A stretch of DNA of 64,000 nucleotides from Candidatus Limnocylindrales bacterium (GTDB lineage Bacteria; Chloroflexota; Limnocylindria; Limnocylindrales; CSP1-4). Both the position numbers and the translations under genes were made by a program. Shown here in pieces: positions 5,232 to 63,700 of this stretch. A model generated the notes under the pieces. It ran no database searches, had not been told where the DNA came from, and saw only the letters and a program-made list of their open reading frames with translations. Location of the stretch: assembly GCA_038248915.1 (NCBI GenBank), contig JBBRXB010000003.1:49091-113090 (forward strand), given 5' to 3'. Position 1 is the first letter of the stretch. Every line of letters begins with the position of its first letter.

Positions 5232-5261
5232 TTGACTGCGGGTTTGCCGCCACCGTAGATT
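5232..5261 (+). promoter_or_regulatory. Sigma70-like promoter (-35 TTGACT, 18-bp spacer, -10 TAGATT) for the ABC ATPase gene
   Basis: Seen directly. The -10 hexamer is fused to the palindromic operator. Confidence 0.5.
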
Positions 5262-5270
5262 GTCGACAAT
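5259..5270. promoter_or_regulatory. Palindromic operator ATTGTCGACAAT (site 1 of 6), candidate GntR-family binding site
   Basis: Perfect 12-bp palindrome with flank TAGATTGTCGACAATG. The same motif recurs at 11474, 46247, 49409, 55381 and 63589. Confidence 0.6.
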
Positions 5271-5316
5271 GTGCGCCGCCACCACGGCGCCCCGAGCCGG
5301 CAGGGAGTCTCACCCG

Positions 5317-6423
5317 ATGGTCGATATGGCGCTCCGGCTCGACGGGATCTCCCGCCACTACGGCGCCGTCCGCGCGGTCGACAACCTGTCGCTCGACATC
5401 CCCTCCGGCGCGTTCGTCACCCTCCTCGGCCCGTCCGGCTGTGGCAAGAGCACGACCCTGAGCCTGATCGCCGGCCTCGATCGGCTGGACGAGGGTCGCA
5501 TCCTCCTGGGCGACGAGGACATCACCGACACGCCACCCAACGAACGACGGATGGCGATGGTCTTCCAGAACTACGCGTTGTACCCCCACCTGTCGGCCTA
5601 CGACAACATCGCCTTCGGGCTCAAGTTGCAGCACCGCCCGAAAGACGAGATCCGGTCGCGCGTTGGTGCCGTGGCCGAAGCTCTCGACATCACCCACCTG
5701 ATGAAGCGAAAGCCGGGTCAGATGTCCGGCGGGCAGCAGCAGCGTGTCGCCCTCGGCCGTGCCCTGGTCAAGGAACCGCTCGTGTTCCTGCTGGACGAAC
5801 CGTTCAGCAACCTCGATGCCGGCCTGCGCAGCCGGATGCGCACTGAGGTCAAGCATCTCCATCTGAAGCTGGGCACGACCAGTGTCTTCGTGACCCACGA
5901 CCAGGAGGAGGCGATGAGCCTGTCCGACCTGATCGCGGTCATGCGCGACGGCAAGGTCGTCCAGCTCGGCACGACGCGCGAGATCTATCGAAATCCACGC
6001 GACCTCTACGTCGCCACGTTCGTCGGCAAGCCGAAGATGAGCCTGGTCGACGGGTCGCTCGAGCACTCGGACGGCGAGGTCGCGTTCCGTTCCGCGGATC
6101 TCCGGATCCCGCTGGGCTCGCCCGCGCGGTTGGGTCTCGTGGACGGCGCTTGGCCGTCCGTCGTGCTCGGCATCCGCGCGGAAGATGTCCAGGTCCTCGT
6201 GGATGGGGCCGAGCGGAACGCGGGCAGCTTCGGGGCGACCGTCACCCTCCTCGAACCGATCGGCTCGGACACCTTCGTGGAGCTGCAGGCCGGCGATGCC
6301 ACGGTCGTCGCGCGGGTCGCCCCGGACGTCAAGCTCGAGATCGACCAGAACGTGCACGCGACGCTGGCCCCGGGACGTGTCCACCTGTTCGATCGCGAGG
6401 ATGGCGGGCGGATCATCCACTGA
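5317..6423 (+). CDS. ABC transporter ATP-binding protein (MalK/UgpC-like, with C-terminal TOBE/regulatory domain)
   Basis: Walker A GPSGCGKST, signature LSGGQQQRVALGRAL, Walker B LLDEPFSNLD. RBS GGGAG precedes the ATG at 5317. Confidence 0.9.
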   Translation: MVDMALRLDGISRHYGAVRAVDNLSLDIPSGAFVTLLGPSGCGKSTTLSLIAGLDRLDEGRILLGDEDITDTPPNERRMAMVFQNYALYPHLSAYDNIAFGLKLQHRPKDEIRSRVGAVAEALDITHLMKRKPGQMSGGQQQRVALGRALVKEPLVFLLDEPFSNLDAGLRSRMRTEVKHLHLKLGTTSVFVTHDQEEAMSLSDLIAVMRDGKVVQLGTTREIYRNPRDLYVATFVGKPKMSLVDGSLEHSDGEVAFRSADLRIPLGSPARLGLVDGAWPSVVLGIRAEDVQVLVDGAERNAGSFGATVTLLEPIGSDTFVELQAGDATVVARVAPDVKLEIDQNVHATLAPGRVHLFDREDGGRIIH

Positions 6424-6429
6424 TCGATG

Positions 6430-6446
6430 GCGGTCGGTCGGACCGC
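6430..6446. terminator. Possible bidirectional terminator hairpin between the convergent ATPase and dhaL genes
   Basis: gcggtc-ggtcg-gaccgc stem-loop in a 30-bp convergent gap. Confidence 0.25.
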
Positions 6447-6452
6447 GCCGCG

Positions 6453-9120: not shown

Positions 9121-11430
9121 TCAGCCCTGGTCGCGGGTAGCGGCCCAGATCCGCCGCGGCGTCATCGGCATCTCGCGTAACCGCGGTCCACCCGCCGCGG
9201 CGATGGCGGACGCCACGGCGGCCCCGGCCGGGATGACCGACGCCTCCCCGATCCCCTTGGCCCCGAACGGCCCGTCCGGGGCCGGGACCTCGACCACCAG
9301 CGTGTCGATGTCCGGGACCTGGTCGGCGCGTGGCAGGGCGTAGTCGAGGAACGAGCCGCTCAGGAGCTGGCCCTCGCTATCGTGGATGAGCTCCTCGTGG
9401 AGCGCCCAGCCGATCCCCTGCGCGGCCGCGCCACGCATCTGGCCCTCGACGAGGGCGGGATTCAGGGCGCGCCCGACGTCCTGGGCGACGACGTAGCCGA
9501 GGACCTGGACGTCACCGGTCGCCGCATCCAGCCGGACATGGGCGATGTGCGCCGCGGTCGACGGCGCGAGACTGGCCTGGACGGTCGAGGCGTGCCCTTC
9601 CACCGGTGGGAACGTGGCGCTGAAGTCGTGCAGCTCTTCCGCGAACTCGGCGATCGGGCGGCCGCGACCGGGCGACCCGACCGGCCGGATGACGCCATCG
9701 ACGATCTCGAGGTCGGCCGGGTCGATCTCCATCTCGAGGGCGGCATAGGCCAGCATCTGGCGCCGCGCGTCGGCCGCCGCCTCGCGGATGGCCCGGCCCG
9801 ATGAGTACGTGATGACACTCCCGCCGCTGAGCGGCGACTGGGGCGCGCCGTCGGTGTCGAGGGCGACGACCTCGACCCGCGACGGGTCCACCCCGAACGT
9901 CTCCGCGGCGATGATCTGGAACGCGCCGGTCGTGCCGCTCATGTCCACGACGCCGGTCGTGATCGTGATCGAGCCGTCGGCGTTGAGCCGGCACAGCGCG
10001 GCGGCCGGCGCCTTGCCCCCCGGCCAGACGCCGAGGGCGATGCCGACGCCTTCGTCCGCCGGCAGGTCGTGGCGGCCCTGCCACAGCGGATGCGCCTTGG
10101 CTGCCTCGAGGACGGCGGCGTGGCCGAGACCCGGCCATGGCTCGCCGTCGACCATCTGATCGCCCTCGGCCGCGAGGTTGCGGGCACGGAAGTCGATCGG
10201 GTCGAGGTCCAACTGGCCGGCCAGCTCGTCGATGAGCGATTCGACGGCGAAGGCGGCCTGTGGCCCGCCGGGACCGCGATACGACCCCGTCCCGAACCGG
10301 TTGGTCCGGACACCGTAGGCCCGGACGTCGAACGCCGCCCAGCGGTACGGCCCACCGATGAGCACGGCCGCGATGCCCTCGATCGACCACTCGATGTAGG
10401 CACCGGTATCGAACACCAGGCGGGCGTCGAGCCCGGTCAGCTTGCCGTCCGCGTCGGCGCCGATCTTGATCTGGATGCGCGAGCCGGGCGCCGGGTTGGT
10501 GCCGGCGATGTCGTCGCGCCGGTCGAACGCGAGGCGGACCGGGCGCTTGAGGGCGAGCGCGGCCCCGGCCGCCAGCGGATCGACGATGAGGATCTTGGAC
10601 CCGAACGAACCGCCCAGCGGCGCGGATCGGACGCGGACCTTGGAGATCGGCCGGCCGAAGATCTTGGCCAGCTGCTTGCGGACATAGAAGATGCCCTGGG
10701 TCGCGGTCGACACGGTCAGGACGCCATCGGGCTCGAGCCAGGCGGTCGCGGCGTGCGGCTCGATGTAGCCCTGGTAGACCCAGTTCGTGAGGAACGTGGC
10801 CTCGGCCGTGACTGCCGAGCCGGCCAGCGCCGCGGCGCTGTCACCGAGCGTGTAGCGCTTGCGGTTGTGGACGTTGGCGGACAGATCCTCGTCGAGCAGC
10901 TCGGCGCCTTCGCCGCCGACCGCGGCATGGGCCGACTTCGCGGAGTTCTCCTCCGCATCCTCCGAGCCGGCCGGCAGGATCGATGTGATTCGAGCCAGCG
11001 GGCTCTCGGGACGCATCGCCGTCTCGAGATCGGTCACGACCGGCAGCCGCTCGGCATCGACGTAGACCTCCGCGACGGCGTCCGCGGCGGCGGACTCCGT
11101 CTCGGCCACGACCAGCGCGACGGGATGGCCCACGAACAGGGCTTCCTCGCGGGCCAGCGGCTCGAACATCCGCATGTCGTCGGCGGCGGCGATCGGCAGG
11201 TCTGCGGCGGTCAGGACCGCGACGACGCCGGGCATCGCCAGGGCGGCGGACGTGTCGATGCTCCGGATCCGGGCGTGGGCATAGACGCTCGGCACGATCC
11301 GGGCGTAGAGGAGGCCGGGCTGTCGCTGGTCGGCGGCATAGCGGGTGTTGCCGCGGACCTTGTCTTCCGAATCGACCCGCGCGCGGGCGACGCCGATGAA
11401 GCTCTTCGCGTCCGTTGCGTCGACCACCAT
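9121..11430 (-). CDS. Xanthine dehydrogenase/aldehyde oxidase family molybdopterin-binding subunit (CoxL/XdhA-like)
   Basis: 769 aa. N-terminal a/b-hammerhead region and the large Mo-binding domains. GGAGG RBS precedes the ATG at M8 of the ORF. Confidence 0.85.
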   Translation of the reverse strand: MVVDATDAKSFIGVARARVDSEDKVRGNTRYAADQRQPGLLYARIVPSVYAHARIRSIDTSAALAMPGVVAVLTAADLPIAAADDMRMFEPLAREEALFVGHPVALVVAETESAAADAVAEVYVDAERLPVVTDLETAMRPESPLARITSILPAGSEDAEENSAKSAHAAVGGEGAELLDEDLSANVHNRKRYTLGDSAAALAGSAVTAEATFLTNWVYQGYIEPHAATAWLEPDGVLTVSTATQGIFYVRKQLAKIFGRPISKVRVRSAPLGGSFGSKILIVDPLAAGAALALKRPVRLAFDRRDDIAGTNPAPGSRIQIKIGADADGKLTGLDARLVFDTGAYIEWSIEGIAAVLIGGPYRWAAFDVRAYGVRTNRFGTGSYRGPGGPQAAFAVESLIDELAGQLDLDPIDFRARNLAAEGDQMVDGEPWPGLGHAAVLEAAKAHPLWQGRHDLPADEGVGIALGVWPGGKAPAAALCRLNADGSITITTGVVDMSGTTGAFQIIAAETFGVDPSRVEVVALDTDGAPQSPLSGGSVITYSSGRAIREAAADARRQMLAYAALEMEIDPADLEIVDGVIRPVGSPGRGRPIAEFAEELHDFSATFPPVEGHASTVQASLAPSTAAHIAHVRLDAATGDVQVLGYVVAQDVGRALNPALVEGQMRGAAAQGIGWALHEELIHDSEGQLLSGSFLDYALPRADQVPDIDTLVVEVPAPDGPFGAKGIGEASVIPAGAAVASAIAAAGGPRLREMPMTPRRIWAATRDQG

Positions 11431-11473
11431 GTTCGCCTCCTGGGACGCCACGGGGACTTGCGGCGCCCGTGAG

Positions 11474-11485
11474 ATTGTCTACAAT
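11474..11485. promoter_or_regulatory. Operator ATTGTCTACAAT (site 2 of 6, 1 mismatch) in a divergent promoter region
   Basis: Lies between the XDH-family gene (-) and the AstE/AspA-like gene (+). TACAAT (plus strand) and GACAAT (minus strand) -10-like hexamers are formed by the operator halves. -35-like TTGCGG (plus) and TTGACC (minus, 11499-11504) are correctly spaced. Confidence 0.5.
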
Positions 11486-11531
11486 CCAACCTCGACCGGT
11501 CAAGGCTGGAGTCCGCGATGCCGACCCTTCC

Positions 11532-12494
11532 ATGGTGACCCATCCGAGGCGACGGCGAATCGCCATCTCACCCGGCGGTGACGACGGGTTCATGCTCATC
11601 GAACTGGGCGACGATGCGGCCGGACCGACCCTGTCGGTCGTCGGTGGCGTGCATGGCGACGAGTTCGAGGGTGTGGCGGCCTGCCTGGCGTTGGCCGACG
11701 GCCTGGCCGGGGCGACCATCCGCGGCCGGCTTCGCCTCGTGCCGGTCGCCCATGAGGGGGCCCACGTCGCCAGCCTGCGGTCGTCGCCGATCGACGGCCG
11801 GAACCTGGCCCGGACGTTCCCGGGCGACCCGACGGGCGAGCCGACCGAACGCCTGGCCGCCGCCCTCCGCGAGCAGGTCATCGAGGGCTCGGACGTCTTC
11901 GTCGACCTCCACAGCGCGGGAACCGCGTACGCCATGCCGTTGCTCGTCGGCTGGGGCGATGACGGGTGCGCGGTCTGTGCTCGCAGCGCCGCCGCGGCGG
12001 AGGCCTTCGCGGCCCCGGTCCTGTGGCGTCACGCCGGCCCGTTGCCGCCGGGACGCACGCTGTCGGCCGCGCACGACGCCGGCATCGCGTCGATCTACGC
12101 CGAGGCGTCGGGCGGCGGGACGGTCACTCGGTCGGAGGCGGCGATGTACGTGTCCGGCGTCCGTCGGCTGCTCGCGTCGCTCGGCATGCTCGAGCTCGAT
12201 CCGGCCGATCGCCTGCCGCCCGACCACGCGCCGCTGCGGCTGGTCGGTGAGGGCGATCTCGATGTGCCGGCCACGGTCGCCCCGTTCGACGGCCTGTGCG
12301 AGACCCTGGTGGGGCCACTCGACGTCGTGACCCGTGGCCAGGTCGTGGCCATCGTCACGGAGCCCCTGACCGGTGAGCGCGCCGAGGTCCGCTCGCTCGG
12401 CGACGGCATCGTCGTGCTTGCCCGGCGAGGTGCGCGGGTCGCCCGGGACGACAACCTCGTCGTGCTGGCCCAGCCCGAGGCGGGGGTCGCCTAG
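11532..12494 (+). CDS. Succinylglutamate desuccinylase/aspartoacylase (AstE/AspA, M14-like Zn hydrolase) family protein
   Basis: GGVHGDEFEG zinc-binding motif and overall family similarity. Start uncertain (11532 ATG or a few codons downstream). Confidence 0.7.
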   Translation: MVTHPRRRRIAISPGGDDGFMLIELGDDAAGPTLSVVGGVHGDEFEGVAACLALADGLAGATIRGRLRLVPVAHEGAHVASLRSSPIDGRNLARTFPGDPTGEPTERLAAALREQVIEGSDVFVDLHSAGTAYAMPLLVGWGDDGCAVCARSAAAAEAFAAPVLWRHAGPLPPGRTLSAAHDAGIASIYAEASGGGTVTRSEAAMYVSGVRRLLASLGMLELDPADRLPPDHAPLRLVGEGDLDVPATVAPFDGLCETLVGPLDVVTRGQVVAIVTEPLTGERAEVRSLGDGIVVLARRGARVARDDNLVVLAQPEAGVA

Positions 12495-12586: not shown

Positions 12587-13687
12587 ATGATCGCCATCCG
12601 CGAGACCGGTCTCGTCTATCGCAATCCGCGGCCCGAGCTCCGTTCGAGGCACACCTGGCACCCGACGGTCGTCCGCTTCGACGACGGCGAGTTACTGGTC
12701 ACCTTCGACATCGCCGAAGCGGACGTCTCGCTCGACTACCGGACCTATGCCACGCACTCGAGTGATGGCGGCGCGACGTGGACGACCCCGGAGCGCGTCG
12801 TACCCGATCCGCCCGGGCGGCCGACCACACAGTCGGTCCGGACCAACCTGATGTCGGATGGCTCGGTCGTGGCGATGGGCGCGCTGATGTACCGCGACGA
12901 TCCCGAGAAGAGTGTCGTCAATGTGCCCAGCCTCGGCTACACGGAGATGGAGCTGATCCTGACCCGCAGCCAGGACCGCGGCCACACCTGGAGCCCGATC
13001 GAGCGGATCGACCCGCCGCTCAAGGGACCCGCGTTCGAGGTCTGCCATTCGATCACCGAGCTGCGTGACGGGCGCTGGGTCTGGCCGTGCTCGACGTGGA
13101 TGGGCTGGGACGGCGACGCGCCGAACGGGATGAACGCGATCCTGCTGGTGTCCGAGGACCAGGGCCGGTCCTGGTCGTCTGCCATCACCGAGTTCGACCG
13201 CTGGGCCGAGCACATCATCCACTGGGAGCAGCATTTCCTCGAGCTGCGCGACGGGCGCTGGCTGACCGTGGCCTGGGTCGTCAACCTCGACACGGGCAAG
13301 ACGCTGGCCACGCCGTACGCCATCAGCCGCGATGGCGGGGCGACCTGGAAGCGCGACCTGACCGGCTTCCTGGCCCAGACGACGAAGACCATCGAGCTGC
13401 CCGATGGGCGGATCCTGGCGGTCTACCGGCGCAACGACGAGCCGGGGCTGTGGGCGACGGCTGCGCGGGTCGATGGCGACACCTGGGTCAACGAGGAGAC
13501 CGTCCCGCTGTGGCGCGGTCAATCGTCGGGGATGACCGGCGACACCAACCCGGGCGAGGAGCTGGCCCAGCTCAAGTTCGGCTTCCCGCAGATGGTCCTG
13601 GAGCCCGACGGGGCGGTCTTCCTCGTGTTCTGGGGCGAGGAGGACTGCGTCAAGAACATCCGCTGGTTCCGGATCGACGTGGGCTAG
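12587..13687 (+). CDS. BNR/Asp-box repeat protein, sialidase (exo-alpha-sialidase)-like beta-propeller, no signal peptide
   Basis: Four Asp-box motifs SxDxGxTW (SSDGGATW, SQDRGHTW, SEDQGRSW, SRDGGATW). Confidence 0.7.
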   Translation: MIAIRETGLVYRNPRPELRSRHTWHPTVVRFDDGELLVTFDIAEADVSLDYRTYATHSSDGGATWTTPERVVPDPPGRPTTQSVRTNLMSDGSVVAMGALMYRDDPEKSVVNVPSLGYTEMELILTRSQDRGHTWSPIERIDPPLKGPAFEVCHSITELRDGRWVWPCSTWMGWDGDAPNGMNAILLVSEDQGRSWSSAITEFDRWAEHIIHWEQHFLELRDGRWLTVAWVVNLDTGKTLATPYAISRDGGATWKRDLTGFLAQTTKTIELPDGRILAVYRRNDEPGLWATAARVDGDTWVNEETVPLWRGQSSGMTGDTNPGEELAQLKFGFPQMVLEPDGAVFLVFWGEEDCVKNIRWFRIDVG

Positions 13688-46214: not shown

Positions 46215-46246
46215 GGCGGCGTCTCCTCGGAAGGTTGTGGAGATGG

Positions 46247-46258: not shown

Positions 46259-46321
46259 CCGGAGCATACGCCCGAGTGGCCGACCGTCGCTCGACCGTTC
46301 GGCGAGGGTCGAGCGAGTGGG

Positions 46322-48294: not shown

Positions 48295-48299
48295 GGACG

Positions 48300-49334: not shown

Positions 49335-49405
49335 CGGGGCAGTCGGCAGCAGCGCATCGGGACCCTCACGCGGCGGATAGGATGGACGGGGTCAAGCGGC
49401 CCGTG

Positions 49406-49423
49406 TAGATTGTCGACAATCTA
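49406..49423. promoter_or_regulatory. Perfect 18-bp palindrome TAGATTGTCGACAATCTA (operator site 4 of 6) between the divergent FMN-dehydrogenase operon and the GntR gene
   Basis: Seen directly; flanked by GTCAAGC(G/C)GCCCG repeats. Confidence 0.65.
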
Positions 49424-49447
49424 GGGTCTGGTCGATGCGGGCGTCAA
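49418..49447 (-). promoter_or_regulatory. Sigma70-like promoter on the minus strand (-35 TTGACG, 18-bp spacer, -10 TAGATT) for the FMN-dehydrogenase/enolase/GNAT operon
   Basis: The -10 hexamer is the outer half of the palindromic operator. Confidence 0.5.
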
Positions 49448-51550: not shown

Positions 51551-52618
51551 CTAGCCGCTGAGCGGCAGCGTCACGACCTGGTGACTCGCGGCGGATCGGT
51601 CCGCTGCCTCGACGATCTCCACGGCGGCCCGCCCATCCCGGCCGGTCACGACCGGGTCGCGGCCATCCCGGATCGCCTCGGCGAAGTCCTGGACCTGGGC
51701 CGCGAACCCCTCGAGCCGGTTGGGGTCGAGGTAATCGCCCAGGAAGTCGAACGCGACTTGCTCGTCCGTGACCCGCCAGCCATCGGCGTCGCCCAGACTG
51801 ACCTTGCCGTAATGGTCGGCCTCGATGATCCCCTTCGACCCGACGATCCGCGTCCAGTCGTTGGGCACCAGGCCGGGTTCGGGCGTCTCGTAGGTCATCA
51901 GCATCTGGGCCATCACCCCGTTCTGCATCGTGACCTGGACCTGGGCGGTCAGGTCGGCCGGCGGCGGGGTCCCGAAGGTGTGGTACTCGGCGTAGACGCG
52001 GGCGACCTCGGAGCCGGTCAGCCAGCGGAGCGCATCGGTCTCGTGGACGCCCCAATCGAGGAATTGCGAGCCCTCGGCCGGATCCCACGCCCAGGCCTTC
52101 CTCGGGATGATCACCCGGCCGGTCGCCTCGTCGATGATGTCCTCGAGCAGGAACCCGGTCCACGTGCCACGCATCTCGATCAGCCGGACGTCGCCGATGG
52201 CGCCCTCGTCGACGAGCCGTTTCATCGCCACCGGCGCGTGCCGGAACCGGGTCACGAAGTTCACCGTGAGCCTGACCCCGGCCGCGTCGCAGGCCGCGAT
52301 GATCGCGTCGCAGTCGGCCACGGACACCGACATCGGCTTCTCGATGTAGACGTGCTTGCCGGCGGCGGCGGCCGCCTCCGCCTGCGGCCGATGTGCGGTA
52401 TGGGGCGAAGTGATGACGACCGCCTCGACCTCGGGCCGGGCGAGCAACGCCGCGAGGGAATCGTCAGCCCCGACCCCAAACTCCGCGGCCAGCGCCGGCG
52501 CCCGCTTGCCACCCCACACCGACACGAGCCGGCCGTCCGGCACGTGCCGGGTCAGACACGCGGCGTAGGTCCGGCCCATGTAGCCGGTCCCGATGACGGC
52601 CATCCCGATCGGGCTCAT
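51551..52618 (-). CDS. Gfo/Idh/MocA family oxidoreductase
   Basis: MAVIGTGYMG and EKPM motifs. GAGGG RBS. ATGA overlap with the PIG-L gene stop. Confidence 0.8.
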   Translation of the reverse strand: MSPIGMAVIGTGYMGRTYAACLTRHVPDGRLVSVWGGKRAPALAAEFGVGADDSLAALLARPEVEAVVITSPHTAHRPQAEAAAAAGKHVYIEKPMSVSVADCDAIIAACDAAGVRLTVNFVTRFRHAPVAMKRLVDEGAIGDVRLIEMRGTWTGFLLEDIIDEATGRVIIPRKAWAWDPAEGSQFLDWGVHETDALRWLTGSEVARVYAEYHTFGTPPPADLTAQVQVTMQNGVMAQMLMTYETPEPGLVPNDWTRIVGSKGIIEADHYGKVSLGDADGWRVTDEQVAFDFLGDYLDPNRLEGFAAQVQDFAEAIRDGRDPVVTGRDGRAAVEIVEAADRSAASHQVVTLPLSG

Positions 52619-53352
52619 GCGTCGCCCTCGGCCGCGGGCGCGACTGATGGTCCGGCCGACAGATCGATGCCCTGGACGAGCGCGTCGACCTTGCCGCCCA
52701 TCCGCTCGGGCTCGCCGGGCAGGTCGTCCCGTGGCGGCAGCCGGTGGAACGGCACGGCGAAGACGGCGTCGAACCCCTCGGCGTGGCGCGACGGCCAGCC
52801 CAGGTCGAGGGCATACCGAAGTCCCAGGTTGACCTCCCACTGGACGAGGTCCACCGGCCATTCGTCCTCGAGCCCGCGGGTCATGATGGCCGCCAGCTCC
52901 ACCTTGCGCTGGGCGATCTCGACGGGCAGGTCGATCCACATGTTCGGGTGGAACTCCAGGGTCGTCGACGCGATCGGATAGCGCAGGATCCGGCTCTTGT
53001 AGGCGAACGTGCCGGCCAGGTCGGCCGCGTCGAGGAGCGCACGTCCGACGGTCGTGTGGTCGCCCGTCCAGTCGCCCGTGGCCGGCGGCCCGAACACGTA
53101 GGCGGGCCTGCGCTCGCGCAGGATCGCTGCCAGCGAGTCCTTGACCCGCTGGGCGTGGTCGGAGATGCGGTGGTAGGGCGCCTCCAGGAATTCGATGGTG
53201 GCGCCGAATGCCGCCGCGACATCGCGCGCCGCCGTCTGCTGGATGGACGACACCGCGACGATGTGGATGTCGTCATCGGCGTGGGTGATGAGCGTGCCGC
53301 CGACGCCGTAGATGAAGTCATCGGTGTGGGGCGTGACGACCAAGATCTCCAC
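52615..53352 (-). CDS. PIG-L/LmbE family N-acetyl-sugar deacetylase
   Basis: VTPHTDDFIYGVGG (HPDDE-type motif). GTG start with GGAGG RBS; an alternative ATG is at 53394. Confidence 0.7.
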   Translation of the reverse strand: MEILVVTPHTDDFIYGVGGTLITHADDDIHIVAVSSIQQTAARDVAAAFGATIEFLEAPYHRISDHAQRVKDSLAAILRERRPAYVFGPPATGDWTGDHTTVGRALLDAADLAGTFAYKSRILRYPIASTTLEFHPNMWIDLPVEIAQRKVELAAIMTRGLEDEWPVDLVQWEVNLGLRYALDLGWPSRHAEGFDAVFAVPFHRLPPRDDLPGEPERMGGKVDALVQGIDLSAGPSVAPAAEGDA

Positions 53353-53413
53353 GGGGCCTCCGAGTCTCTGGTTCGATGGCGATGGGCCGGCCATCGCGCC
53401 GGCCGGCGCGCGG

Positions 53414-54349
53414 TCAGGCGGTGAGGACCGAGTCCTCCAGCCACGAGCGGTACTCCGCCTCGAGGAACCGCTTGCAGACCTGGTAGTCGTCCTCGCTGAA
53501 GCCCGTATACGGCGACAGCAGCCGGAGCGGGAATTCCGGGAGCATGCCGAGCTTGACCAACATCTTGTCGTAGGCGCCGTCCATGTGCGGCCCGGGCGTC
53601 GGCTGTTCCCACAGGTCCGTGCCCAGGCGCTGAAACGCGTGCTGGAGCCGCATCAGCTCGCCGGCATCGCCGGTCCGGCCGGCTTCGAACAGGGCGAACG
53701 TCTGCCGTGGCGACAGCTCCGCATACGACGCGAGCAGGGACGCCTCGCCGAACATGGCGCCGTGCGGGAAGTTGCCCTCGCCCATGAAGTGCTGGAGCTC
53801 GCCAGCGTGGCGGATCAGCTCCTCCGCTCCGGCCATCCCGCCGCCGGTCGTCTTGGTCGCGACGAGGTTGGGGACCTTCGGGATGACCTTGGCGTAATCG
53901 CGCCCGCCGAGGACCCGCTTGGTCCGGGGCAGGTTGTAGTGGAGGAACTGCGAGTCCGGGAAGCTGCCGCACACGTCCGAGAAGAAGCGCAGGACCTCGT
54001 CGTCGTTGAGCGGGCCCCACGACGGCAGCGAGATCTGGAACGTGCGAAAGCCGACGTCATGCGCGTATGAAAGGCGCTCGACGATCTGGACGGTCGACAG
54101 CCCGATGACGCCGACCATCGCGTTGACCGGCCGGCCGTCGATCTCCTCGTGGAAGACGTCGACCACCTGGCGGAACCGTCGTGTGTCGACGGCGTAGCCC
54201 TCCCCGCCCGTCCCGAACACGTAGCAGTGCTTGAAGCCGGCGGCGATGACGCGCCGGACCTCCTCGCGGAGGAGCTCCTCGATGAGCTCGTCGTGGTCGT
54301 CCCAGGGCGACGGACAGGCGACGAGGATGCCCTGCGGATAGCGGGCCAT
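53414..54349 (-). CDS. Dihydrodipicolinate synthase/N-acetylneuraminate lyase (DapA) family protein, likely 2-keto-3-deoxy-acid lyase/dehydratase
   Basis: FGTGGEG motif and DapA-family TIM barrel. Confidence 0.75.
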   Translation of the reverse strand: MARYPQGILVACPSPWDDHDELIEELLREEVRRVIAAGFKHCYVFGTGGEGYAVDTRRFRQVVDVFHEEIDGRPVNAMVGVIGLSTVQIVERLSYAHDVGFRTFQISLPSWGPLNDDEVLRFFSDVCGSFPDSQFLHYNLPRTKRVLGGRDYAKVIPKVPNLVATKTTGGGMAGAEELIRHAGELQHFMGEGNFPHGAMFGEASLLASYAELSPRQTFALFEAGRTGDAGELMRLQHAFQRLGTDLWEQPTPGPHMDGAYDKMLVKLGMLPEFPLRLLSPYTGFSEDDYQVCKRFLEAEYRSWLEDSVLTA

Positions 54350-55353
54350 CAGGCGGCCGCCGGGATGCGGCCACCGGTCTCGAGGAGACCGAGCACGTAT
54401 TCGGCGGCCAGCCGGTGGAGGTCGTCCACGGCCTCGCGCGAGGTGCCCGCGATGTGTGGGGTGAGCACGACGTCGTCGCGTCCCTTGAGTGGGTCCGCGG
54501 CGGGCTCCGGCGGTTCCGTGACGCGGACGTCGAGGGCCGCGACGACGACCCGGCCGTCCTCGAGCGCCTCGGCCAGCGCGGTCTCGTCGATGTGGCCGCC
54601 GCGCGAGATGTTGACGAGGATCAGTCCCGGCTTGACCCCGGCCAGCGTCTCGCGAGTGACGAGCGCCGGCGACCCCGGCGTGTAGGCGGCGCAGATGACG
54701 ATGGCGTCGGCCGTGGCGAACAGCTCGTCGCGGTCCACCAGGGGCAGGTCCGGATCGTTGGCCTCGGCCAGGAACGGATCGTAGGCGATGGTCCGGAACC
54801 CGAACGCGCGGGCCTTGGCCGCGACCAGGCGGCCGATCCGGCCCGCGCCCGCGACCCCCAGCGTCTGCCCACGAAGCCGGCGGATGGAGCCCGTGATGGT
54901 CTTGTCACCGGCTGGCCAGCCACCGGCGGCGGTGGCCGTCGCGAACGGCAGGATGCGTCGTTGCGCGGCGAGGAGCAGGGCTAGCGCGTGATCGGACACC
55001 TCGTCCGTGCAGTAATCCGGGACGTTCCGGACCGCGATCCCGGCCTTGGCCGCAGCCGGTCCGTCGACCTTGTCCATGCCGATGCTGTAACAGAGGATCC
55101 CGGCGCAGCGCTCCAGGCTGGCCACACGGTCCGCGTCGAGGCGGCCCCAGCCGGTGACGATGACCGCATCGGCGGTCCGGATCGCCTCGTCGGCCTCGGC
55201 CGCGTCGCCCGGCACGATCAGGTCCACGCCCCGGCTGCCGAGGATCGCGGTTTCCGGACCCCAACTCGAGATACCGGGAACGGGGTCGAAGACGACGACC
55301 CTCGGGCGCGCGCCGGACTCGGTGGCGGCGGTTGGCGCGGGGCTCTGGGTCAT
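54349..55353 (-). CDS. D-isomer-specific 2-hydroxyacid dehydrogenase family protein
   Basis: GVAGAGRIG NAD-binding motif and catalytic region; start overlaps the downstream gene. Confidence 0.85.
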   Translation of the reverse strand: MTQSPAPTAATESGARPRVVVFDPVPGISSWGPETAILGSRGVDLIVPGDAAEADEAIRTADAVIVTGWGRLDADRVASLERCAGILCYSIGMDKVDGPAAAKAGIAVRNVPDYCTDEVSDHALALLLAAQRRILPFATATAAGGWPAGDKTITGSIRRLRGQTLGVAGAGRIGRLVAAKARAFGFRTIAYDPFLAEANDPDLPLVDRDELFATADAIVICAAYTPGSPALVTRETLAGVKPGLILVNISRGGHIDETALAEALEDGRVVVAALDVRVTEPPEPAADPLKGRDDVVLTPHIAGTSREAVDDLHRLAAEYVLGLLETGGRIPAAA

Positions 55354-55377
55354 CGGATCTCCGTTGCGGTCGGGATG

Positions 55378-55395
55378 TACATTGTCGACAATCTA
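55378..55395. promoter_or_regulatory. Operator ACATTGTCGACAATCTAG (site 5 of 6; core ATTGTCGACAAT at 55381-55392) in a divergent promoter region
   Basis: Lies between the 2-hydroxyacid dehydrogenase operon (-) and the ALDH operon (+). TACATT -10-like hexamer on the plus strand. Confidence 0.6.
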
Positions 55396-55419
55396 GGGTC
55401 CGTGGCGCGCCGCCGTCAA
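55390..55419 (-). promoter_or_regulatory. Sigma70-like promoter on the minus strand (-35 TTGACG, 18-bp spacer, -10 TAGATT) for the 2-hydroxyacid dehydrogenase/DapA-like/PIG-L/Gfo operon
   Basis: Same architecture as at 49418-49447. Confidence 0.5.
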
Positions 55420-55467: not shown

Positions 55468-56952
55468 ATGATGGTGATGGAACGGACCGACACGGTGGCG
55501 CATTTCATCGGTGGCGAGGAGGTGCCCTCGGCCTCCGGCCGGACCTTCGCGACGATCGATCCGTCGACCGGGCGGGAGATCGCCCAGGTCGCGTTCGGCG
55601 ACACGGAGGACATCGACCGGGCGGTCGCGGCCGGGCGCGCGGCGTTCGAATCGGGCGCCTGGTCGAAGGCCGCGCCGGGCCACCGCGCGGCGGTCATGCG
55701 CAAGCTCGCCGACCTCATCCACCAGGACGCCGACCGGATCGGCGCGATCGAGTCGCGCGACACGGGCAAGCCCCTGGGCCAGGCCATCGCCGAGGTCCAC
55801 CTGGGCGCCGATTTCCTGACCTACTTCGCCGGGCATGCCGAGCTCCCGAATGGGACCACCTACCCCGCCGACGCCGGCTACTTCGTCTACTCGGTCCGCG
55901 AGCCGTATGGCGTCGTCGGTGCGATCAGCCCATGGAACTATCCGTTCCTGCTCGCCTGCTGGAAGACCGCGCCGGCGCTCGCAGTCGGCAACTCGGTCGT
56001 GCTCAAGATGGCCGAGCAGACGCCGCTGTCCACCGCCGAGCTGGGCCGGCTGACGCTCGAAGCAGGGATGCCGGCTGGGGTGTTCAACGTCGTCCACGGT
56101 GACGGCCCGACGACCGGGGCCGCCCTGGTCGCCCACCCGCACGTGCCCAAGCTCACGTTCACCGGCTCCACCGTGACGGGCCAGGCGATCCTGCGCTCGG
56201 CGGCCGACCACATCAAGAGCGTGCATCTCGAGCTCGGTGGCAAGACGCCCAGCATCGTCTTCGGCGATGCGGACATCGATCAGGCGATCTCCGGCTCTCT
56301 GTTCACGGCCTTTTACAACACCGGCCAGATCTGCACGAGCGGGTCGCGACTGCTCGTCCAGAAGAACCGGGCGGACGAGATCATCGACGCGTTCGTGGAG
56401 CGCGCCCGCGGCATCAAGGTCGGCGATCCTGGCGAGGCGACCTCGCAGCTCGGGCCGCTCATCAGCGAGGAGCAGTACCGGCGCGTCACCGGCTACATCG
56501 AGGAGGGCCAGCGCGGCGGAGCGCGACTCGCGCTCGGTGGCGGGCGGCCGTCGGTCCCGATCGCCGATGACGGCTATTACGTCGAGCCGACGATCTTCGT
56601 GGACGTGACCCCGGACATGCGGATCGCACAGGAGGAGATCTTCGGGCCGGTCCTGTCGGTCCTCACCTTCGAGGACGAGGACGACGCCATCCGGATCGCC
56701 AACGACGTCATGTATGGACTGGCCGCGACGGTCTGGACCACCGACCTTGGCCGCGCTTTCCGGGTGGCCGACAAGATCGACGCCGGGATCATCTGGACCA
56801 ACTGCCCGCATTACCTGCCGGTCAACGTGCCGTACGAGGGCCACAAGATGTCCGGCCAGGGCGAGGACCTGGGCGTCGAGGCGCTCCAGACGTTCACCCA
56901 CCTCAAGACCCATTGCATCAACTTCAACGGCGGCAGGATGGCATGGGCGTGA
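55468..56952 (+). CDS. NAD(P)-dependent aldehyde dehydrogenase (possible 2-oxoglutarate-semialdehyde dehydrogenase-type)
   Basis: ALDH motifs (GAISPWNYP, ELGGK, catalytic Cys in GQICTSGSR, EEIFGPV). GGAGG RBS. Confidence 0.9.
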   Translation: MMVMERTDTVAHFIGGEEVPSASGRTFATIDPSTGREIAQVAFGDTEDIDRAVAAGRAAFESGAWSKAAPGHRAAVMRKLADLIHQDADRIGAIESRDTGKPLGQAIAEVHLGADFLTYFAGHAELPNGTTYPADAGYFVYSVREPYGVVGAISPWNYPFLLACWKTAPALAVGNSVVLKMAEQTPLSTAELGRLTLEAGMPAGVFNVVHGDGPTTGAALVAHPHVPKLTFTGSTVTGQAILRSAADHIKSVHLELGGKTPSIVFGDADIDQAISGSLFTAFYNTGQICTSGSRLLVQKNRADEIIDAFVERARGIKVGDPGEATSQLGPLISEEQYRRVTGYIEEGQRGGARLALGGGRPSVPIADDGYYVEPTIFVDVTPDMRIAQEEIFGPVLSVLTFEDEDDAIRIANDVMYGLAATVWTTDLGRAFRVADKIDAGIIWTNCPHYLPVNVPYEGHKMSGQGEDLGVEALQTFTHLKTHCINFNGGRMAWA

Positions 56953-58058
56953 GCGGACCCACCGGGATCACAGCCGCGACCACGGCCGACCTCGCCGCCA
57001 TCCGCGCCCAGTTCCACCCGGCCGACGGGATCACCTACCTCGACAGTGCGACGTACGGGCTGCCGCCGCAGGCGACCGTGGACGCACTCGATCGGGCAAC
57101 GCGCGCCTGGCAGACCGGGACTGGCGACTGGGTGACCGACTGGGACGCCCCGACGGACCAGGCGCCGCGCGACTTCGCGGCGCTGATCGGGGCACCGGAG
57201 GACACGATCGCCACGATCCCGGCCTCGTCGGTCGGAACGGGGTTAGTGGCCGGGATGCTGGGCGCTGGCGACGAGGTGGTCGTGCCGGCCGACGAGTTCA
57301 CGTCGAGCCTGTTCCCCTTGCTGGTGGCAAGGGAGCGCGGCGCCGTCATCCGCGAGGTGCCATTCGACGAACTGGCCGCGTCTATCGGGCCGGCTACGAC
57401 GTTGGTGGCGTTCAGCCTGGTCCAGATGCAGACCGGCAAGCTGGCCGACCTCGAAGGGATCACCGCGGCCGCCGACCAGCACGGCGCACGCGTCATGGTC
57501 GACGCGACGCAGTCGATCCCGTTCGTGCCGCTCGACGGCGTCATCGACCGGATCGACTACCTCGTCTGCTCGGGCTACAAGCACCTCCTCTCCCCGCGCG
57601 GGACCGCGTATCTCTACGTCCGCCGCGACCACTGGGACGAGCTCGAGCCTCGGAATGCCAACTGGCGTGCCGCGGACCTGCCGTTCGGTCGCTACTTCGG
57701 CGGGCCGCTGTCGCTGGCACCGGACGCGCGCCGGTTCGACGTGTCGCGGGCCTGGTTCCCGTGGGTCGGCGCGACCGAGTCGCTGCACCTGCTGACCGAG
57801 TGGAAGGCGACCGGCGCGTTCGAGGCGGTCCGCGGCCTGGCGGAGCGTCTGGCGGACAGGCTCGGCGTCCCGTGGTTCGGCGGCTCGCTCGTGTGCGCGC
57901 CGCTGGACAACGGCCAGGCAGCCCGTGCGGCCTGCCTGGCGGCCGGCGTCAAGGCATCGGTCCGCGGCACGGCAGTCCGCTTCGCGGTCCACGTCTACAA
58001 CACCGAAGCCGACCTCGACCGAGCAGCGGAGGCCATCGCGCCGTTCACCGGCGGCTGA
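56943..58058 (+). CDS. Aminotransferase class V-fold PLP-dependent enzyme
   Basis: YLDSATYGLPP N-terminus and the PLP-lysine region CSGYKHLLSPRG. 10-nt overlap with the ALDH 3' end. Confidence 0.75.
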   Translation: MGVSGPTGITAATTADLAAIRAQFHPADGITYLDSATYGLPPQATVDALDRATRAWQTGTGDWVTDWDAPTDQAPRDFAALIGAPEDTIATIPASSVGTGLVAGMLGAGDEVVVPADEFTSSLFPLLVARERGAVIREVPFDELAASIGPATTLVAFSLVQMQTGKLADLEGITAAADQHGARVMVDATQSIPFVPLDGVIDRIDYLVCSGYKHLLSPRGTAYLYVRRDHWDELEPRNANWRAADLPFGRYFGGPLSLAPDARRFDVSRAWFPWVGATESLHLLTEWKATGAFEAVRGLAERLADRLGVPWFGGSLVCAPLDNGQAARAACLAAGVKASVRGTAVRFAVHVYNTEADLDRAAEAIAPFTGG

Positions 58059-60465: not shown

Positions 60466-60501
60466 GGTTGTGTGACGCGAGTGCCGACCCCTTCGTTTAC
60501 G

Positions 60502-61101: not shown

Positions 61102-61230
61102 CGTGCCCCGATCTCGAGCAGCAGATCCAGTCGAAGCATAGCCTGAGGGTCCAGTCTGCCTCGAGAGCGTCACTGATGCCGACGCACCAACACTTGCCGT
61201 TCGTCTCAGCGGCGGCCGACCGTCCGAACC

Positions 61231-62388
61231 TCAGCCAGAGTTCCGGAGCGGGTGCTCGGCGACGACCGACTCGACGATGTTGGCGCCGAGCCCGGGCCGT
61301 GAGGGCACGATCAGCTCGCCGTCGACGATCTCGATCTTCTGGTCGATGAGGTCCCACTTCCAGGGGATGTCGTCCATGTCGATCTCGAAGATCTCGAAGT
61401 TGGGCATCGCGGCGTAGAGATGCGCGTTGGCGAGGGTGGACAGCGGGCTCATGTAGTTGTGCGGCGAGACCATCGTGTCGTAGTGGGCCGCCAGCTCGCA
61501 GATCCGGCGCGATTCCGACAGGCCGTTGTTGAGGAGCTCCACCATGACCACGTCCGTGACGTGGCGCTCGAGGAACGGGCGGAACTGCTCGCGCCGGATG
61601 AGCGCCTCGCCATGGCACAGGCGCGTCCGGGTCCCCCGCCGGGCGGTCAGCAGCGCGTCCGGATCGAACCCTTCGGCCTCCAGCCAGTACAGGTCGAATG
61701 GCTCAAGCGCCCGCCCGAGCTCGATGATCCCGCCGTGGCGGTACTCCTGGCCGACGTCGAACAGGATCCCCATGTCCGGTCCGACCCGCTCTCGCAGGGC
61801 GCCGATGAACGCCACCGCCGCATCGATCCGGTAGCGGTCGATAGCGCCGTACAGCGTGGGTGGCAGGCCGGTCGTCAGCCCCGGCACGAGCAGATTGGTC
61901 TTGAGCGCCTTGAAGCCTGCCGCTTCGACGTCGTCGACGAGCGCGATCCAGCTGTCGAGGGTGCGCGCCGGCTCGACCCCGAGCGCCTCCGGGTCGATCG
62001 CCCGGTAGGAGGCGAAATGCGACCAGTACAGCGGCAGCCGGTCGCGGTACAGGCCGCCCAGCAGCTCGTAGACGGGCACGCCCAGCCACTTGCCCTTGAT
62101 GTCGTAGAGCGCCAGCTCGATCGCCGCGAGGACCTTCATCCGTTCCGGCACGCCGGCCTTGCCCACGTCCCAGAACTTCCGGCCGATCAGGTCGATCCGG
62201 CGCGGATCCTCGCCGACCAACTCCTTGCCGAGGACGCGGATGGCCTCGGCCAGCACGGACCCGGTGTGCCAGTCGTAGCCCTCGCCCCAGCCGACGATGC
62301 CCTCGTCGGTCGTGACCTTGACGAACAGCCAGTCCCGACCGCCGATGCCGCTGTTGCAGGTCATCGGCTCGATGGCGGTGATCTTCAT
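61231..62388 (-). CDS. Enolase-superfamily acid-sugar dehydratase (D-mannonate/D-galactonate dehydratase-like subgroup)
   Basis: MKITAIEP...VKVTTDEGIVGWGEGY N-terminus. ATGA overlap with the upstream paralog. Confidence 0.85.
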   Translation of the reverse strand: MKITAIEPMTCNSGIGGRDWLFVKVTTDEGIVGWGEGYDWHTGSVLAEAIRVLGKELVGEDPRRIDLIGRKFWDVGKAGVPERMKVLAAIELALYDIKGKWLGVPVYELLGGLYRDRLPLYWSHFASYRAIDPEALGVEPARTLDSWIALVDDVEAAGFKALKTNLLVPGLTTGLPPTLYGAIDRYRIDAAVAFIGALRERVGPDMGILFDVGQEYRHGGIIELGRALEPFDLYWLEAEGFDPDALLTARRGTRTRLCHGEALIRREQFRPFLERHVTDVVMVELLNNGLSESRRICELAAHYDTMVSPHNYMSPLSTLANAHLYAAMPNFEIFEIDMDDIPWKWDLIDQKIEIVDGELIVPSRPGLGANIVESVVAEHPLRNSG

Positions 62389-63551
62389 GGCAACCGGTCC
62401 GCGGCGAGCGGATGCGCTCGCACGACGTCTTCGACGATGTCGGCGCCCCAGCCGGGCCGGTCCGACACGATCAATTGCCCGTTCTCGATCTCGAGCGGGT
62501 GGGTCAGCAGGTCGCCCTTCCAGGGCACGTCGTCGATGTCGATCTCGAGGATCTCCACGTTCGAGACCGCCGCGCACAGCTGGGCGTTGATCAACGTCCC
62601 GAGCGGGCTCATCCAGTTGTGGGGCGAGATCATCGTGTCGTACAGCTCGGCCATCTCGGCGATCCTGCGCGACTCGGACAGGCCATTGGACAGCGTTTCG
62701 ATCATCACGACATCCGTGACGTGACGCTGGAAGAACGGCCGGAACTGCTCGCGCCGGATGAGGCTTTCGCCGTGGCACAGGCGGGTGGTCGTCTGCTCGC
62801 GCGCCGCCAGCAGCGCGTCCGGGTCGAGGCTCTCGGCCTCCAGCCAGTACAGGTCGAATGGCTCGAGCGCCCGGGCGAGCTGGACGATGCCGCCCATCCG
62901 GTAGTCGAACTGGACGTCGACGGCGATACCGATGCCCGGTCCGACCACGTCGCGGAGCGTGCCGATCCAGGCCACCGCGGCGTCGATCGTCGCGTGGTCG
63001 ATCGCGCCGTCGAGGTAGCGCGGCAGACGGGCGCGGCCGTCCGGGCCGCCCTCCGCGATGAGGTTAGTCTTGAGGACCTTGTACCCGGCCGCGACCACGT
63101 CCCGCGCCCCGGCCGCCCACTCGGCGTACGTGTGGGTCGGCGGCTGGCCGACGACCTCCGGCCAGACCGCGCGGTACGTCGCGAAGTGCGACCAGTACAG
63201 CGGGATCCGATCGCGGAACAGGCCGCCGAGCAGCTCGTAGACCGGCACGCTCAGCCACTTCGCCTTGATGTCCCACAGCGCGAGGTCCATCGCGGCCAGG
63301 ACCTTCTGGCGTTCCGGGACGCCCGGCCGGCCGCTGTACCAGATCCGCTCGTTCATCAGCTCGATCCGACGCGGGTCTTCGCCGATCAGCCGCCGGCCCA
63401 TGACTTCGAGCGCGGTCTTGAGCGACGCCGAGGTGTGCCAGTCGTAGGTCTCCGCCCAGCCGACGATGCCCTCGTCCGTGGTGACCTTCAGGAAACCGAA
63501 TTCGCGCGATCCGCCGTCGCAGACGAATGGCTCGATCGCCGTGATCTTCAC
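62385..63551 (-). CDS. Enolase-superfamily acid-sugar dehydratase, tandem paralog
   Basis: ~65% identical by eye to 61231..62388 (VKITAIEPFVCDGG...LKVTTDEGIVGWAETY). GTG start chosen so that the operator lies upstream. Confidence 0.85.
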   Translation of the reverse strand: MKITAIEPFVCDGGSREFGFLKVTTDEGIVGWAETYDWHTSASLKTALEVMGRRLIGEDPRRIELMNERIWYSGRPGVPERQKVLAAMDLALWDIKAKWLSVPVYELLGGLFRDRIPLYWSHFATYRAVWPEVVGQPPTHTYAEWAAGARDVVAAGYKVLKTNLIAEGGPDGRARLPRYLDGAIDHATIDAAVAWIGTLRDVVGPGIGIAVDVQFDYRMGGIVQLARALEPFDLYWLEAESLDPDALLAAREQTTTRLCHGESLIRREQFRPFFQRHVTDVVMIETLSNGLSESRRIAEMAELYDTMISPHNWMSPLGTLINAQLCAAVSNVEILEIDIDDVPWKGDLLTHPLEIENGQLIVSDRPGWGADIVEDVVRAHPLAADRLP

Positions 63552-63588
63552 TCGCGGGCCCCTCGCGATTCGGTTGACATCGTCCCGG

Positions 63589-63600
63589 ATTGTCGACAAT
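63589..63600. promoter_or_regulatory. Operator ATTGTCGACAAT (site 6 of 6) in the divergent region between the tandem dehydratases and a Gfo oxidoreductase
   Basis: GGATTGTCGACAATCAT. TATGAT -10-like element on the minus strand at 63599-63604; TTGACA at 63573-63578 on the plus strand. Confidence 0.6.
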
Positions 63601-63700
63601 CATACCGACACGGTCCGTCGAGATCGACGCGATTCCCGAATGCTGTCTCCGGTTCGCTGCGCGTCCCGGATGGCCACTTCACGAAAGGACGCAGGCCTCC

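Follow-up and report, generated by a model that had tools for sequence, protein, structure and literature searches.

Six PrpR-type palindromes as predicted operators of a FadR-subfamily GntR repressor in an uncultured soil Chloroflexota bacterium

Operators of the FadR subfamily of GntR regulators follow the consensus TKGT/ACMA, with the GT and AC dinucleotides usually separated by 3 nt; a 2-nt spacer is found in the GntR, HpxS, HypR, MdcY, PrpR, and UxuR groups (Suvorova et al. 2015, PMC4494728). The closest functional analogue of the system considered here is PrpR of Pseudomonas aeruginosa (PA0797), a GntR/FCD repressor that binds the prpR upstream region in electrophoretic mobility shift assays and whose predicted motif, a 12-nt palindrome upstream of prpR, is ATTGTCGACAAT (Dolan et al. 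2022, PMC9765439). Literally the same sequence, ATTGTCGACAAT, was predicted as the site of the "Bxe_A4089" group (Bxe_A4101, Bphyt_6216, Acry_1267), and the sole FadR-type regulon reconstructed in the Chloroflexi in the same study (in Chloroflexus, Roseiflexus, and Sphaerobacter) is that of HyuR, with the site ATTGTATACAAT (Suvorova et al. 2015, PMC4494728, supplementary file 2 for the Bxe_A4089 group). Here we analyze a 64 kb stretch of DNA (hereafter, the window) from an uncultured soil member of the Chloroflexota related to Thermomicrobiales/Limnocylindria, in which a regulator gene has its closest relatives, by a scan of reference genomes, in Chloroflexota metagenome-assembled genomes (MAGs) assigned to Thermomicrobiales, Limnocylindrales, and "uncultured Chloroflexia." Six palindromes in this window are very probably the operators of an FCD/FadR-subfamily GntR repressor encoded among them at 49480-50178, and a close paralogue may share them.

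Copies of ATTGTCGACAAT with at most one mismatch occur in the window at 5259, 11474, 46247, 49409, 55381, and 63589 only. The original prediction had placed six sites at exactly these positions, one of them a variant, the copy at 11474 being ATTGTCTACAAT (G7->T). Chance would supply 0.02 sites, and none of 100 dinucleotide shuffles of the window reached six; since the window is 70% G+C, the A/T-rich 12-mer is even more conspicuous. An extended perfect palindrome, the 18-mer TAGATTGTCGACAATCTA, is present once, at 49406..49423, next to the GntR gene as had been claimed. The remaining operators depart from it by one base at 55378..55395 (TACATTGTCGACAATCTA), by two at 5256..5273 (TAGATTGTCGACAATGTG), and by three at 11471..11488 (GAGATTGTCTACAATCCA) and 46244..46261 (core 46247-46258); the sixth, at 63586..63603, reads CGGATTGTCGACAATCAT. 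Relaxing the search to three mismatches adds background only (12 matches against 9.6 expected in the window), so the six sites form a sharply separated class. The sole 2-mismatch match, at 12911, falls inside a BNR-repeat gene and is consistent with chance, and scans of the window with TTGTNNACAA at one mismatch and with three mismatches gave no additional credible sites.

All six sites lie between genes called from the GC-frame signal, with 33-113 nt separating the site center from the likely start codon and a Shine-Dalgarno sequence ahead of each such start. The same holds over a larger sample comprising the window and loci L002-L018 (316 kb, 83% coding), in which every site with at most one mismatch is intergenic (28/28; three of these are 4-17 nt inside starts that we judged over-called). 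This distribution rejects the possibility that the motif is a generic repeat abundant in coding DNA. Flank and spacer statistics were drawn from 39 distinct sites (78 site-orientations), among which the core is invariant and the flanks follow the consensus gTAG-core-CTAg; where only a single TAG flank is present, the transcribed gene is the one downstream of that flank's side.

The regulator gene (49480..50178, +) encodes 232 residues with a GntR domain (PF00392, E = 1e-14, residues 19-78) and an FCD domain (PF07729, E = 5.8e-22, residues 89-220), in agreement with its earlier designation as a FadR-type GntR protein. We adopted the GTG start at 49480 because it reproduces exactly a protein called on a public contig and follows an AGGAGG Shine-Dalgarno sequence; the longer version from ATG 49435, the longest open reading frame (ORF), is not on record as a protein and was discarded. 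The 582 homologues found come nearly all from soil and sediment metagenomes. Among 20 orthologues the helix-turn-helix (HTH) is nearly invariant, and D139, H143, H196, and H218 are invariant; these residues may correspond to the metal-ligand positions of TM0439-type FCD domains. The solved FCD-type relatives matched are 7xp0, 3c7j, 6z74, and 3sxy, the closest being 7xp0 (E = 1e-20), which has a PrpR-like HTH and recognition helix. The recognition helix of the window protein is VSRGPVREA, and the operator boxes, TTGT-CG-ACAA with a 2-nt spacer, conform to the FadR-subfamily TKGT/ACMA pattern; the suggestion that a GT-N2-AC core fits GntR-family operators therefore holds for the 2-nt-spacer variant of this subfamily (PMC4494728). 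Two other regulators of the window, an IclR protein (38642-39445) and an HTH_3-cupin protein (about 18500-19105), were considered and set aside, as neither has a positional link to the sites or is conserved beside them in other genomes.

The comparative check proposed at the outset came out positive in both directions: motif and regulator accompany each other. Starting from the regulator, the exact 12-mer is found 45-100 bp upstream of its gene in L001-L004, L006, and L082, and a copy with one mismatch in L007, L008, L009, and L017; in Chloroflexota MAGs, this autoregulatory site is kept at orthologues of 68-90% identity and at paralogues of 43-57% identity. No such site was seen at the Burkholderiaceae GntR homologues examined, which are 34-36% identical. 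Starting from the motif, in 34 of 78 metagenome loci that carry the exact 18-mer TAGATTGTCGACAATCTA a GntR-family gene begins 16-234 bp downstream. Half of these 34 genes encode orthologues (71-92% identity) paired with a divergent FMN-dependent dehydrogenase (FMN_dh) gene; the other 17 encode proteins only distantly related (30-48% identity), their contigs ranging from 44 to 67% G+C, and a common helix, [VIT]SR[GASN][PA][VIL]REA, runs through all 34. The 18-mer also precedes an ABC ATPase orthologue at 13 further loci and a 2-hydroxyacid dehydrogenase gene at three. On the 59% GC metagenome contig of locus L102 (6629-12210), 107 bp separate the identical 18-mer from a gntR-type prpR gene downstream of it, after which come prpB, prpC, and acnD, these three scoring above equivalog cut-offs; regulators with an identity of only about 31% thus share the operator across phyla. 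Identical 18-mers with PrpR-like regulators were also noted at L131 and L135.

Site-gene pairs are conserved as well. The site of the FMN_dh/gntR divergon is retained in seven genomes, and L001-L004, L017, and L082 keep it at the position of 49406..49423 although their spacers differ: the conserved elements are TGGACGGG, the 18-mer, and GTCAAGCC only, and the DNA between them has diverged, which is a classic phylogenetic footprint. The GTCAAGCC block, on the FMN_dh promoter side, keeps a fixed distance in at least five genomes, and the TGGACGGG block, on the gntR promoter side, keeps the same distance in L002, L003, L004, L017, and L082. Conservation extends to the HpcH aldolase site in six genomes (together with a GAGCATAC block in L003, L004, L017, L082, and L084), to the 2-hydroxyacid dehydrogenase/aldehyde dehydrogenase (ALDH) site in three or four, including L004 and L005, and to the ABC ATPase site in four, with orthologues behind a site in L084 (14549), L085 (8547), and L009 (14158). 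The pair of gntR and an enolase-superfamily (MR_MLE) gene recurs in L002-L005, L082, and L085, and L004 and L005 keep the gene order of the 2-hydroxyacid dehydrogenase operon while adding one gene to it. Even the G->T variant of 11474 recurs, in L009, upstream of a GntR gene adjoining an orthologue of the XDH-family molybdenum enzyme gene.

The palindromes appear to be built into promoters. A scan of 39 kb for sigma-70-like consensus matches returned eight promoter-like sequences, five of them with the -10 hexamer in or against an operator: TTGACT-18-TAGATT at 5232..5261 (+, ABC ATPase site), TTGACC-18-GACAAT at 11474..11503 (-, Mo-enzyme gene), TTGACG-18-TAGATT at both 49418..49447 (-, FMN_dh operon) and 55390..55419 (-, 2-hydroxyacid dehydrogenase operon), and TTGACA-18-AATCAT at 63574..63603 (+). 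The three TTGAC(T/G)-18-TAGATT arrangements noticed earlier were thereby recovered, at 5232, 49447, and 55419. The promoter at 49418..49447 takes its -10 hexamer from the right outer half of the palindrome; a candidate gntR promoter read from the sequence on the other strand, TGGACG-17-TAGATT at 49383..49411 (+), uses the left outer half as its -10 hexamer and, with 8/12 consensus matches, is below the scan threshold. Similar readings give a putative ALDH-operon promoter, TTGCGG-17-GACAAT (55364..55392, +), conserved in L004 and L005, and a putative promoter of the AstE-like gene, TTGCGG-16-TACAAT (11458..11485, +); a conserved -10-like TATGCT (46263..46268, -) lies 4 nt upstream of the 46247 core, and a TATGAT hexamer (63599..63604, -) overlaps the 63589 core. 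We infer these below-threshold partner promoters on the other strand; their sequence blocks are conserved in other genomes.

TTGAC peaks 26-27 nt before the core (17 of 78 site-orientations), the -35/-10 spacer is 18 nt in each scan match, and across the 39 sites 18-nt spacers (10 cases) outnumber 17-nt ones (7 cases), the -35 boxes being conserved at a fixed 17-18 nt from the -10 element. The 18-nt spacer, one base beyond the Escherichia coli optimum, may be a trait of the lineage. If transcription is assumed to start about 7 nt past the -10 hexamer, all cores fall between about -21 and +10. At 49409 the divergent promoters would face each other with complete overlap, so that one bound dimer would block both. 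The architecture proposed at the outset, a repressor occluding RNA polymerase, gains credence from the five sites with a -10 hexamer in or against the palindrome and from the conserved -35 boxes. Together, these patterns support, at the level of sequence, an autoregulated repressor whose operators would be fused to core promoter elements.

We posit that a dimer of the regulator binds TAG-ATTGTCGACAAT-CTA through TTGT/ACAA half-sites 2 nt apart. The operator would overlap a promoter at its -10 hexamer or transcription start, or would do so for two divergent promoters that face each other, so the bound repressor would keep RNA polymerase off, and about ten transcription units (roughly 20 genes) would be silenced along with the repressor's own gene. 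Induction would follow when the FCD domain, which presumably contains a metal, binds a small carboxylate and the protein lets go of the DNA; this ligand is probably a pathway intermediate, either an acid sugar or a 2-keto-3-deoxy acid. Both binding itself and its repressive rather than activating outcome are inferred, as is the nature of the effector and of the substrate.

Several observations weigh against assigning all of this to one repressor acting on the promoter elements as read here. The -10 and -35 assignments are consensus matches only, in a lineage of unmapped promoters; moreover, at 46247 and for some strands of the divergent sites the scan accepted no -35 box. The regulators themselves fall into two groups, A (the window protein with its relatives at 68% identity or above) and B (43-57% identity), in which the recognition helix and wing are nearly identical but the ligand domains differ, including a 4-residue indel. 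In both groups the motif precedes the regulator's own gene or operon, and a single 2.14-Mb contig has a group-A gene at a distance of about 35 kb from a group-B gene (L082 and L010). Because a paralogue with essentially the same DNA-reading helix can share the chromosome, not all six sites can be assigned to the window regulator, and site-by-site occupancy may not be fixed to one protein. Some group-B loci with the same HTH carry a GTATAC-centered variant. At four loci, the orthologous position has ATCGTATACA(T/A)T instead: L010 (~7468), L014 (~7590), L015 (~5592), and L013 (~270), which are without ATTGTCGACAAT, share a conserved gggATATCGTATACATTcgac between the D-serine-dehydratase-like (DSD) and BNR genes, a GTATAC-centered sequence resembling the Chloroflexi HyuR motif. 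L011, L012, and L016 have ATTGTCGACAAT at this DSD/BNR position though the regulator HTH is the same; specificity is thus not fully predictable from the helix, and operator centers may diverge between paralogues.

These data bear directly on how many regulators use the sites. The six sites could be shared or split between two paralogous FCD-GntR proteins of the same specificity and different ligands, one in the window and the other elsewhere in the genome, in which case the six would not be a single protein's regulon and the paralogue may be the main user of those at 5259 and 11474. The near-identical helices and wings, the presence of ATTGTCGACAAT upstream of both kinds of gene, and their proximity on the contig shared by L082 and L010 all speak for such a division, as do the group-B-type loci L007, L009, L011, L012, and L016, where orthologues of the BNR, Mo-enzyme, and ABC ATPase genes are located. 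No group-B gene is present in the 64 kb window, however, ABC ATPase sites also occur in group-A loci (L084 and L085), and in the one genome in which A and B were shown to coexist the B locus has the GTATAC-type site (L010) and the A locus the GTCGAC type (L082), which would separate the two regulons. On balance, sharing seems less likely than not. Of the proposal that the sites make up one regulon, the conserved site-gene pairs sustain the grouping, and the paralogue leaves the assignment of all six to one protein insecure. A more elaborate idea, which we offer as a doubtful conjecture, is that one 18-bp palindrome would fill three roles, as the operator and as the two opposing -10 hexamers of mirror-image divergent promoters that overlap completely, and that at least two paralogous repressors would compete for the same operators and integrate signals, with divergence of the centers (GTCGAC vs GTATAC) acting as insulation between paralogues that coexist. 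If this were true, -35 boxes positioned 17-18 nt off either side would complete the promoters, and the different ligand domains would feed several metabolite signals into them.

Whether the bound protein represses, or whether the palindrome is a protein-binding site at all, can be judged from where the sites lie. In the FadR subfamily the position of a site can make the protein an activator, a point discussed for FadR and HypR (PMC6608401), and at 63589 (+) and 11474 (-) the core is between -35 and -10 rather than over the start. An activator, or a dual regulator at some sites, is nevertheless unlikely: every site overlaps the core promoter (about -21 to +10), none is upstream of a -35 box, and PrpR, which uses the same operator, is a repressor. 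A palindrome with TAGATT as its outer half on either strand, accompanied at 49409 by -35 boxes at 17-18 nt in both directions, and with a flank asymmetry that follows the direction of the downstream gene, might be mainly a promoter element, that is, a symmetric pair of -10 hexamers in a bidirectional promoter. This we consider very improbable, because the invariant part is the GC-containing core TTGTCGACAA and not the -10-like flanks, and because the register of the core against the -10 hexamer varies (within it, downstream of it at 46247, or between -35 and -10 at 63589). Furthermore, the same 18-mer stands beside GntR genes of unrelated phyla at GC contents from 0.44 to 0.67, and the 12-mer region is a demonstrated target of the GntR-type PrpR. 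A short perfect palindrome in intergenic DNA could, finally, be a dispersed REP- or MITE-like repeat, a cluster of restriction-site palindromes (GTCGAC is a common type II restriction recognition sequence), or an accident. The chance expectation quoted above, the lack of any extended repeat beyond 18 bp (the flanks are unrelated), the placement of sites always upstream of genes and never between convergent genes, and the orthologous conservation of their positions effectively refute this. Repression by the FCD-GntR protein remains the best account of the sites.

The genes flanking the six sites were annotated with Pfam, which reproduced all the neighboring annotations of the original prediction, and ten regulon enzymes were also compared with NCBIfam; Rfam and tRNA scans of the window gave no matches. 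The perfect operator at 49406..49423 separates the FMN_dh operon on its left (46322..49334, -), with tight gene spacing between the FMN-dependent 2-hydroxyacid dehydrogenase (48300..49334), MR_MLE (47125..48294), and GNAT (46322..47128) genes, from gntR and a second MR_MLE dehydratase-like gene on its right (50175..51269, +), whose GTG start overlaps the gntR stop codon (GTGA). The site at 46247 has the GNAT end of the FMN_dh operon (-) on its right and lies 38 nt upstream of the start of an HpcH/HpaI-type aldolase gene on its left (45411..46214, -; Pfam and NCBIfam), which is followed by a Gfo/Idh/MocA oxidoreductase gene (44102..45118, -; Pfam and NCBIfam). The interval between these two, 45119-45410, is a 292-bp gap without a called gene; in L004 it is 22 bp. 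To the left of 55381 is an operon (51551..55353, -) of 2-hydroxyacid dehydrogenase (54349..55353), DHDPS-like (53414..54349), PIG-L deacetylase-like (52615..53352), and Gfo (51551..52618) genes, and to its right an operon of ALDH (55468..56952, +) and class-V aminotransferase (56943..58058, +). Two MR_MLE dehydratase-like genes (62385..63551 and 61231..62388, both -; Pfam and NCBIfam) lie left of 63589, and a Gfo/Idh/MocA gene cut by the window end (63701..64000, +) lies right of it. Between the aminotransferase and MR_MLE genes, over 58100-61230, G+C content drops from 0.70 to 0.62-0.67 and the coding-frame signal is weak; this interval contains a Fic-domain ORF (58151-58843, -) along with others that lack Pfam matches, and it may be an acquired or decaying insert within the regulon cluster.

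At the other end of the window, the variant site at 11474 separates the gene for a xanthine dehydrogenase/aldehyde oxidase (XDH)-family molybdopterin subunit (9121..11430, -; ATG 11430 after AGGAGG) from those for an AstE/AspA-like deacylase (11532..12494, +; start 11532 or 11592) and a BNR-repeat protein (12587..13687, +). The site at 5259 follows a Gfo oxidoreductase gene (+) that ends at 5045, and its operator is 52 nt upstream of the start of a stand-alone ABC transporter ATPase with a TOBE domain, MsmX/MalK-like (5317..6423, +). Upstream of this site are a permease (3-1298), a likely binding protein without a Pfam match (1336/1573-2772), a MetE-like Meth_synt_2 gene (2864-3949), and the Gfo gene, with which the ATPase probably belongs. 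In L085 (2809-8547), a single operon behind the site combines the ATPase, a fused permease, a solute-binding protein (SBP), and Meth_synt_2; of that transport group, only the ATPase is behind site 5259 in the window. A D-serine-dehydratase-like gene (19231-20373, +) and an Amidohydro_3 gene (20339-21979, -), which are under the GntR motif in group-B loci, are without a site in the window and adjoin the HTH_3-cupin regulator, which has its own promoter-like TTGACC-18-TAGTAT (18309-18338). Farther on, a cluster at 22078-29509 (+) has no GntR site; Gfo, NHL-repeat/SGL-like, and amidohydrolase genes are interspersed there among four genes for luciferase-like monooxygenases.

As a class, the enzymes plausibly fit an oxidative, non-phosphorylative sugar-acid scheme, in which Gfo dehydrogenases would act before mandelate-racemase-type acid-sugar dehydratases, class II (HpcH) and class I (DHDPS-like) aldolases or dehydratases would follow, and ALDH would complete the route. 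None of the ten enzymes reached an NCBIfam equivalog cut-off, so no substrate can be assigned; below that threshold, the best scores of the MR_MLE proteins are against galactonate, arabinonate, and talarate dehydratase models, that of HpcH is against HpaI/GarL, and ALDH scores against HpaE, BADH, and KGSADH models. That the substrate carries an amino or N-acyl group is suggested by the PIG-L, GNAT, AstE-like, and aminotransferase genes, and equally by the D-aminoacylase-like and D-serine-dehydratase-like genes of group-B loci. The oxidative sugar-acid pathway of the original prediction is accordingly plausible as a class, and its finer assignment is set back by the missing equivalog-level matches and by the inclusion of these N-acyl- and amino-handling enzymes. 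An N-succinyl-amino-acid racemase (NSAR) route for D-amino acids, which the combination of MR_MLE, GNAT, and AstE-like genes brings to mind, finds no support: for the MR_MLE proteins, acid-sugar dehydratase models outscore OSBS/NSAR and epimerase models by far. Hydroxyproline catabolism under HypR, as in Streptomyces coelicolor, was suggested by the DHDPS-like and ALDH genes and rejected, the HypR motif CTNTGC(A/C)ATGTCAC, known from experiment, being unrelated.

A precise operator, one regulator, and about ten transcription units amount to a testable predicted regulon for a lineage with almost no known regulation. The predicted module joins five enolase-superfamily enzymes, several Gfo oxidoreductases, two aldolase types, ALDH, a Mo-enzyme, and a stand-alone ABC ATPase, and this co-regulation should help to find its substrate. 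Beyond the window, FCD-GntR proteins of several phyla employ the PrpR-type operator ATTGTCGACAAT, in correlation with the helix SRxP[VIL]REA. This is an ordinary kind of regulon and reveals no new kind of mechanism.

Each of the known systems shares some of its features. Sugar-acid repressors of the FadR type are induced by an acid sugar. Among them, Bacillus subtilis GntR, E. coli DgoR, and UxuR/ExuR are likewise FadR-subfamily repressors with TTGT..ACAA palindromes (ATACTTGTATACAAGTAT for GntR, with a 2-nt spacer, and TTGTAGTACAA for DgoR), but they differ in the central bases and spacer, control a single operon each, and have low similarity to the window protein. In the E. coli bio operon (bioO/BirA), two face-to-face overlapping divergent promoters are controlled by one repressor through one symmetric operator. 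The arrangement proposed for 49409 and 55381 resembles it, as an architectural analogy only: the repressor families are unrelated and the bio operator is 40 bp long. HyuR comes from the same phylum and subfamily and has the outer boxes ATTGTA-TACAAT, but its center is TA/TA rather than C/G, its helix is SRTPVRQA, and its targets are hydantoin-utilization genes; the window, with a GTCGAC center and the helix SRGPVREA, matches neither ATTGTATACAAT nor the HyuR helix. The Bxe_A4089 group is nearer, with sites often located in divergons that include the regulator gene and a helix SR[SA]P[VI]REAF, and differs in being proteobacterial, a computational prediction only, and linked to other regulated genes.

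Literature matches to TTGTCGACAA are mostly cloning primers with a SalI site, the useful one being the description of PrpR, and it is PrpR that the window regulator resembles most. Both proteins combine a winged-HTH GntR domain with an FCD domain, their helices are ISRGPLREA in PrpR and VSRGPVREA in the window, and the operator core ATTGTCGACAAT is identical and upstream of the regulator's own gene, the full 18-mer TAGATTGTCGACAATCTA being present in L102. At about 31-39% identity to PrpR-like proteins, and 31% to those of L102, L131, and L135, the window regulator and PrpR are not orthologous. No prpB, prpC, or acnD gene (methylisocitrate lyase, 2-methylcitrate synthase, AcnD) was found in the 64 kb window, where six sites spread over Gfo oxidoreductases, enolase-superfamily dehydratases, aldolases, and ALDH take the place of the one operon under PrpR, and 2-methylcitrate is unlikely to be the effector here. 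Because the palindrome was already published as the PrpR operator, the finding is less novel than it was first rated: the operator sequence and the type of regulator are known, and the lineage and the content of the regulon are new. By analogy, supported by the shared operator and domain plan, this regulator would work in the manner of PrpR, DgoR, and GntR-type repressors, using a PrpR-type operator to govern other genes without being an orthologue of PrpR.

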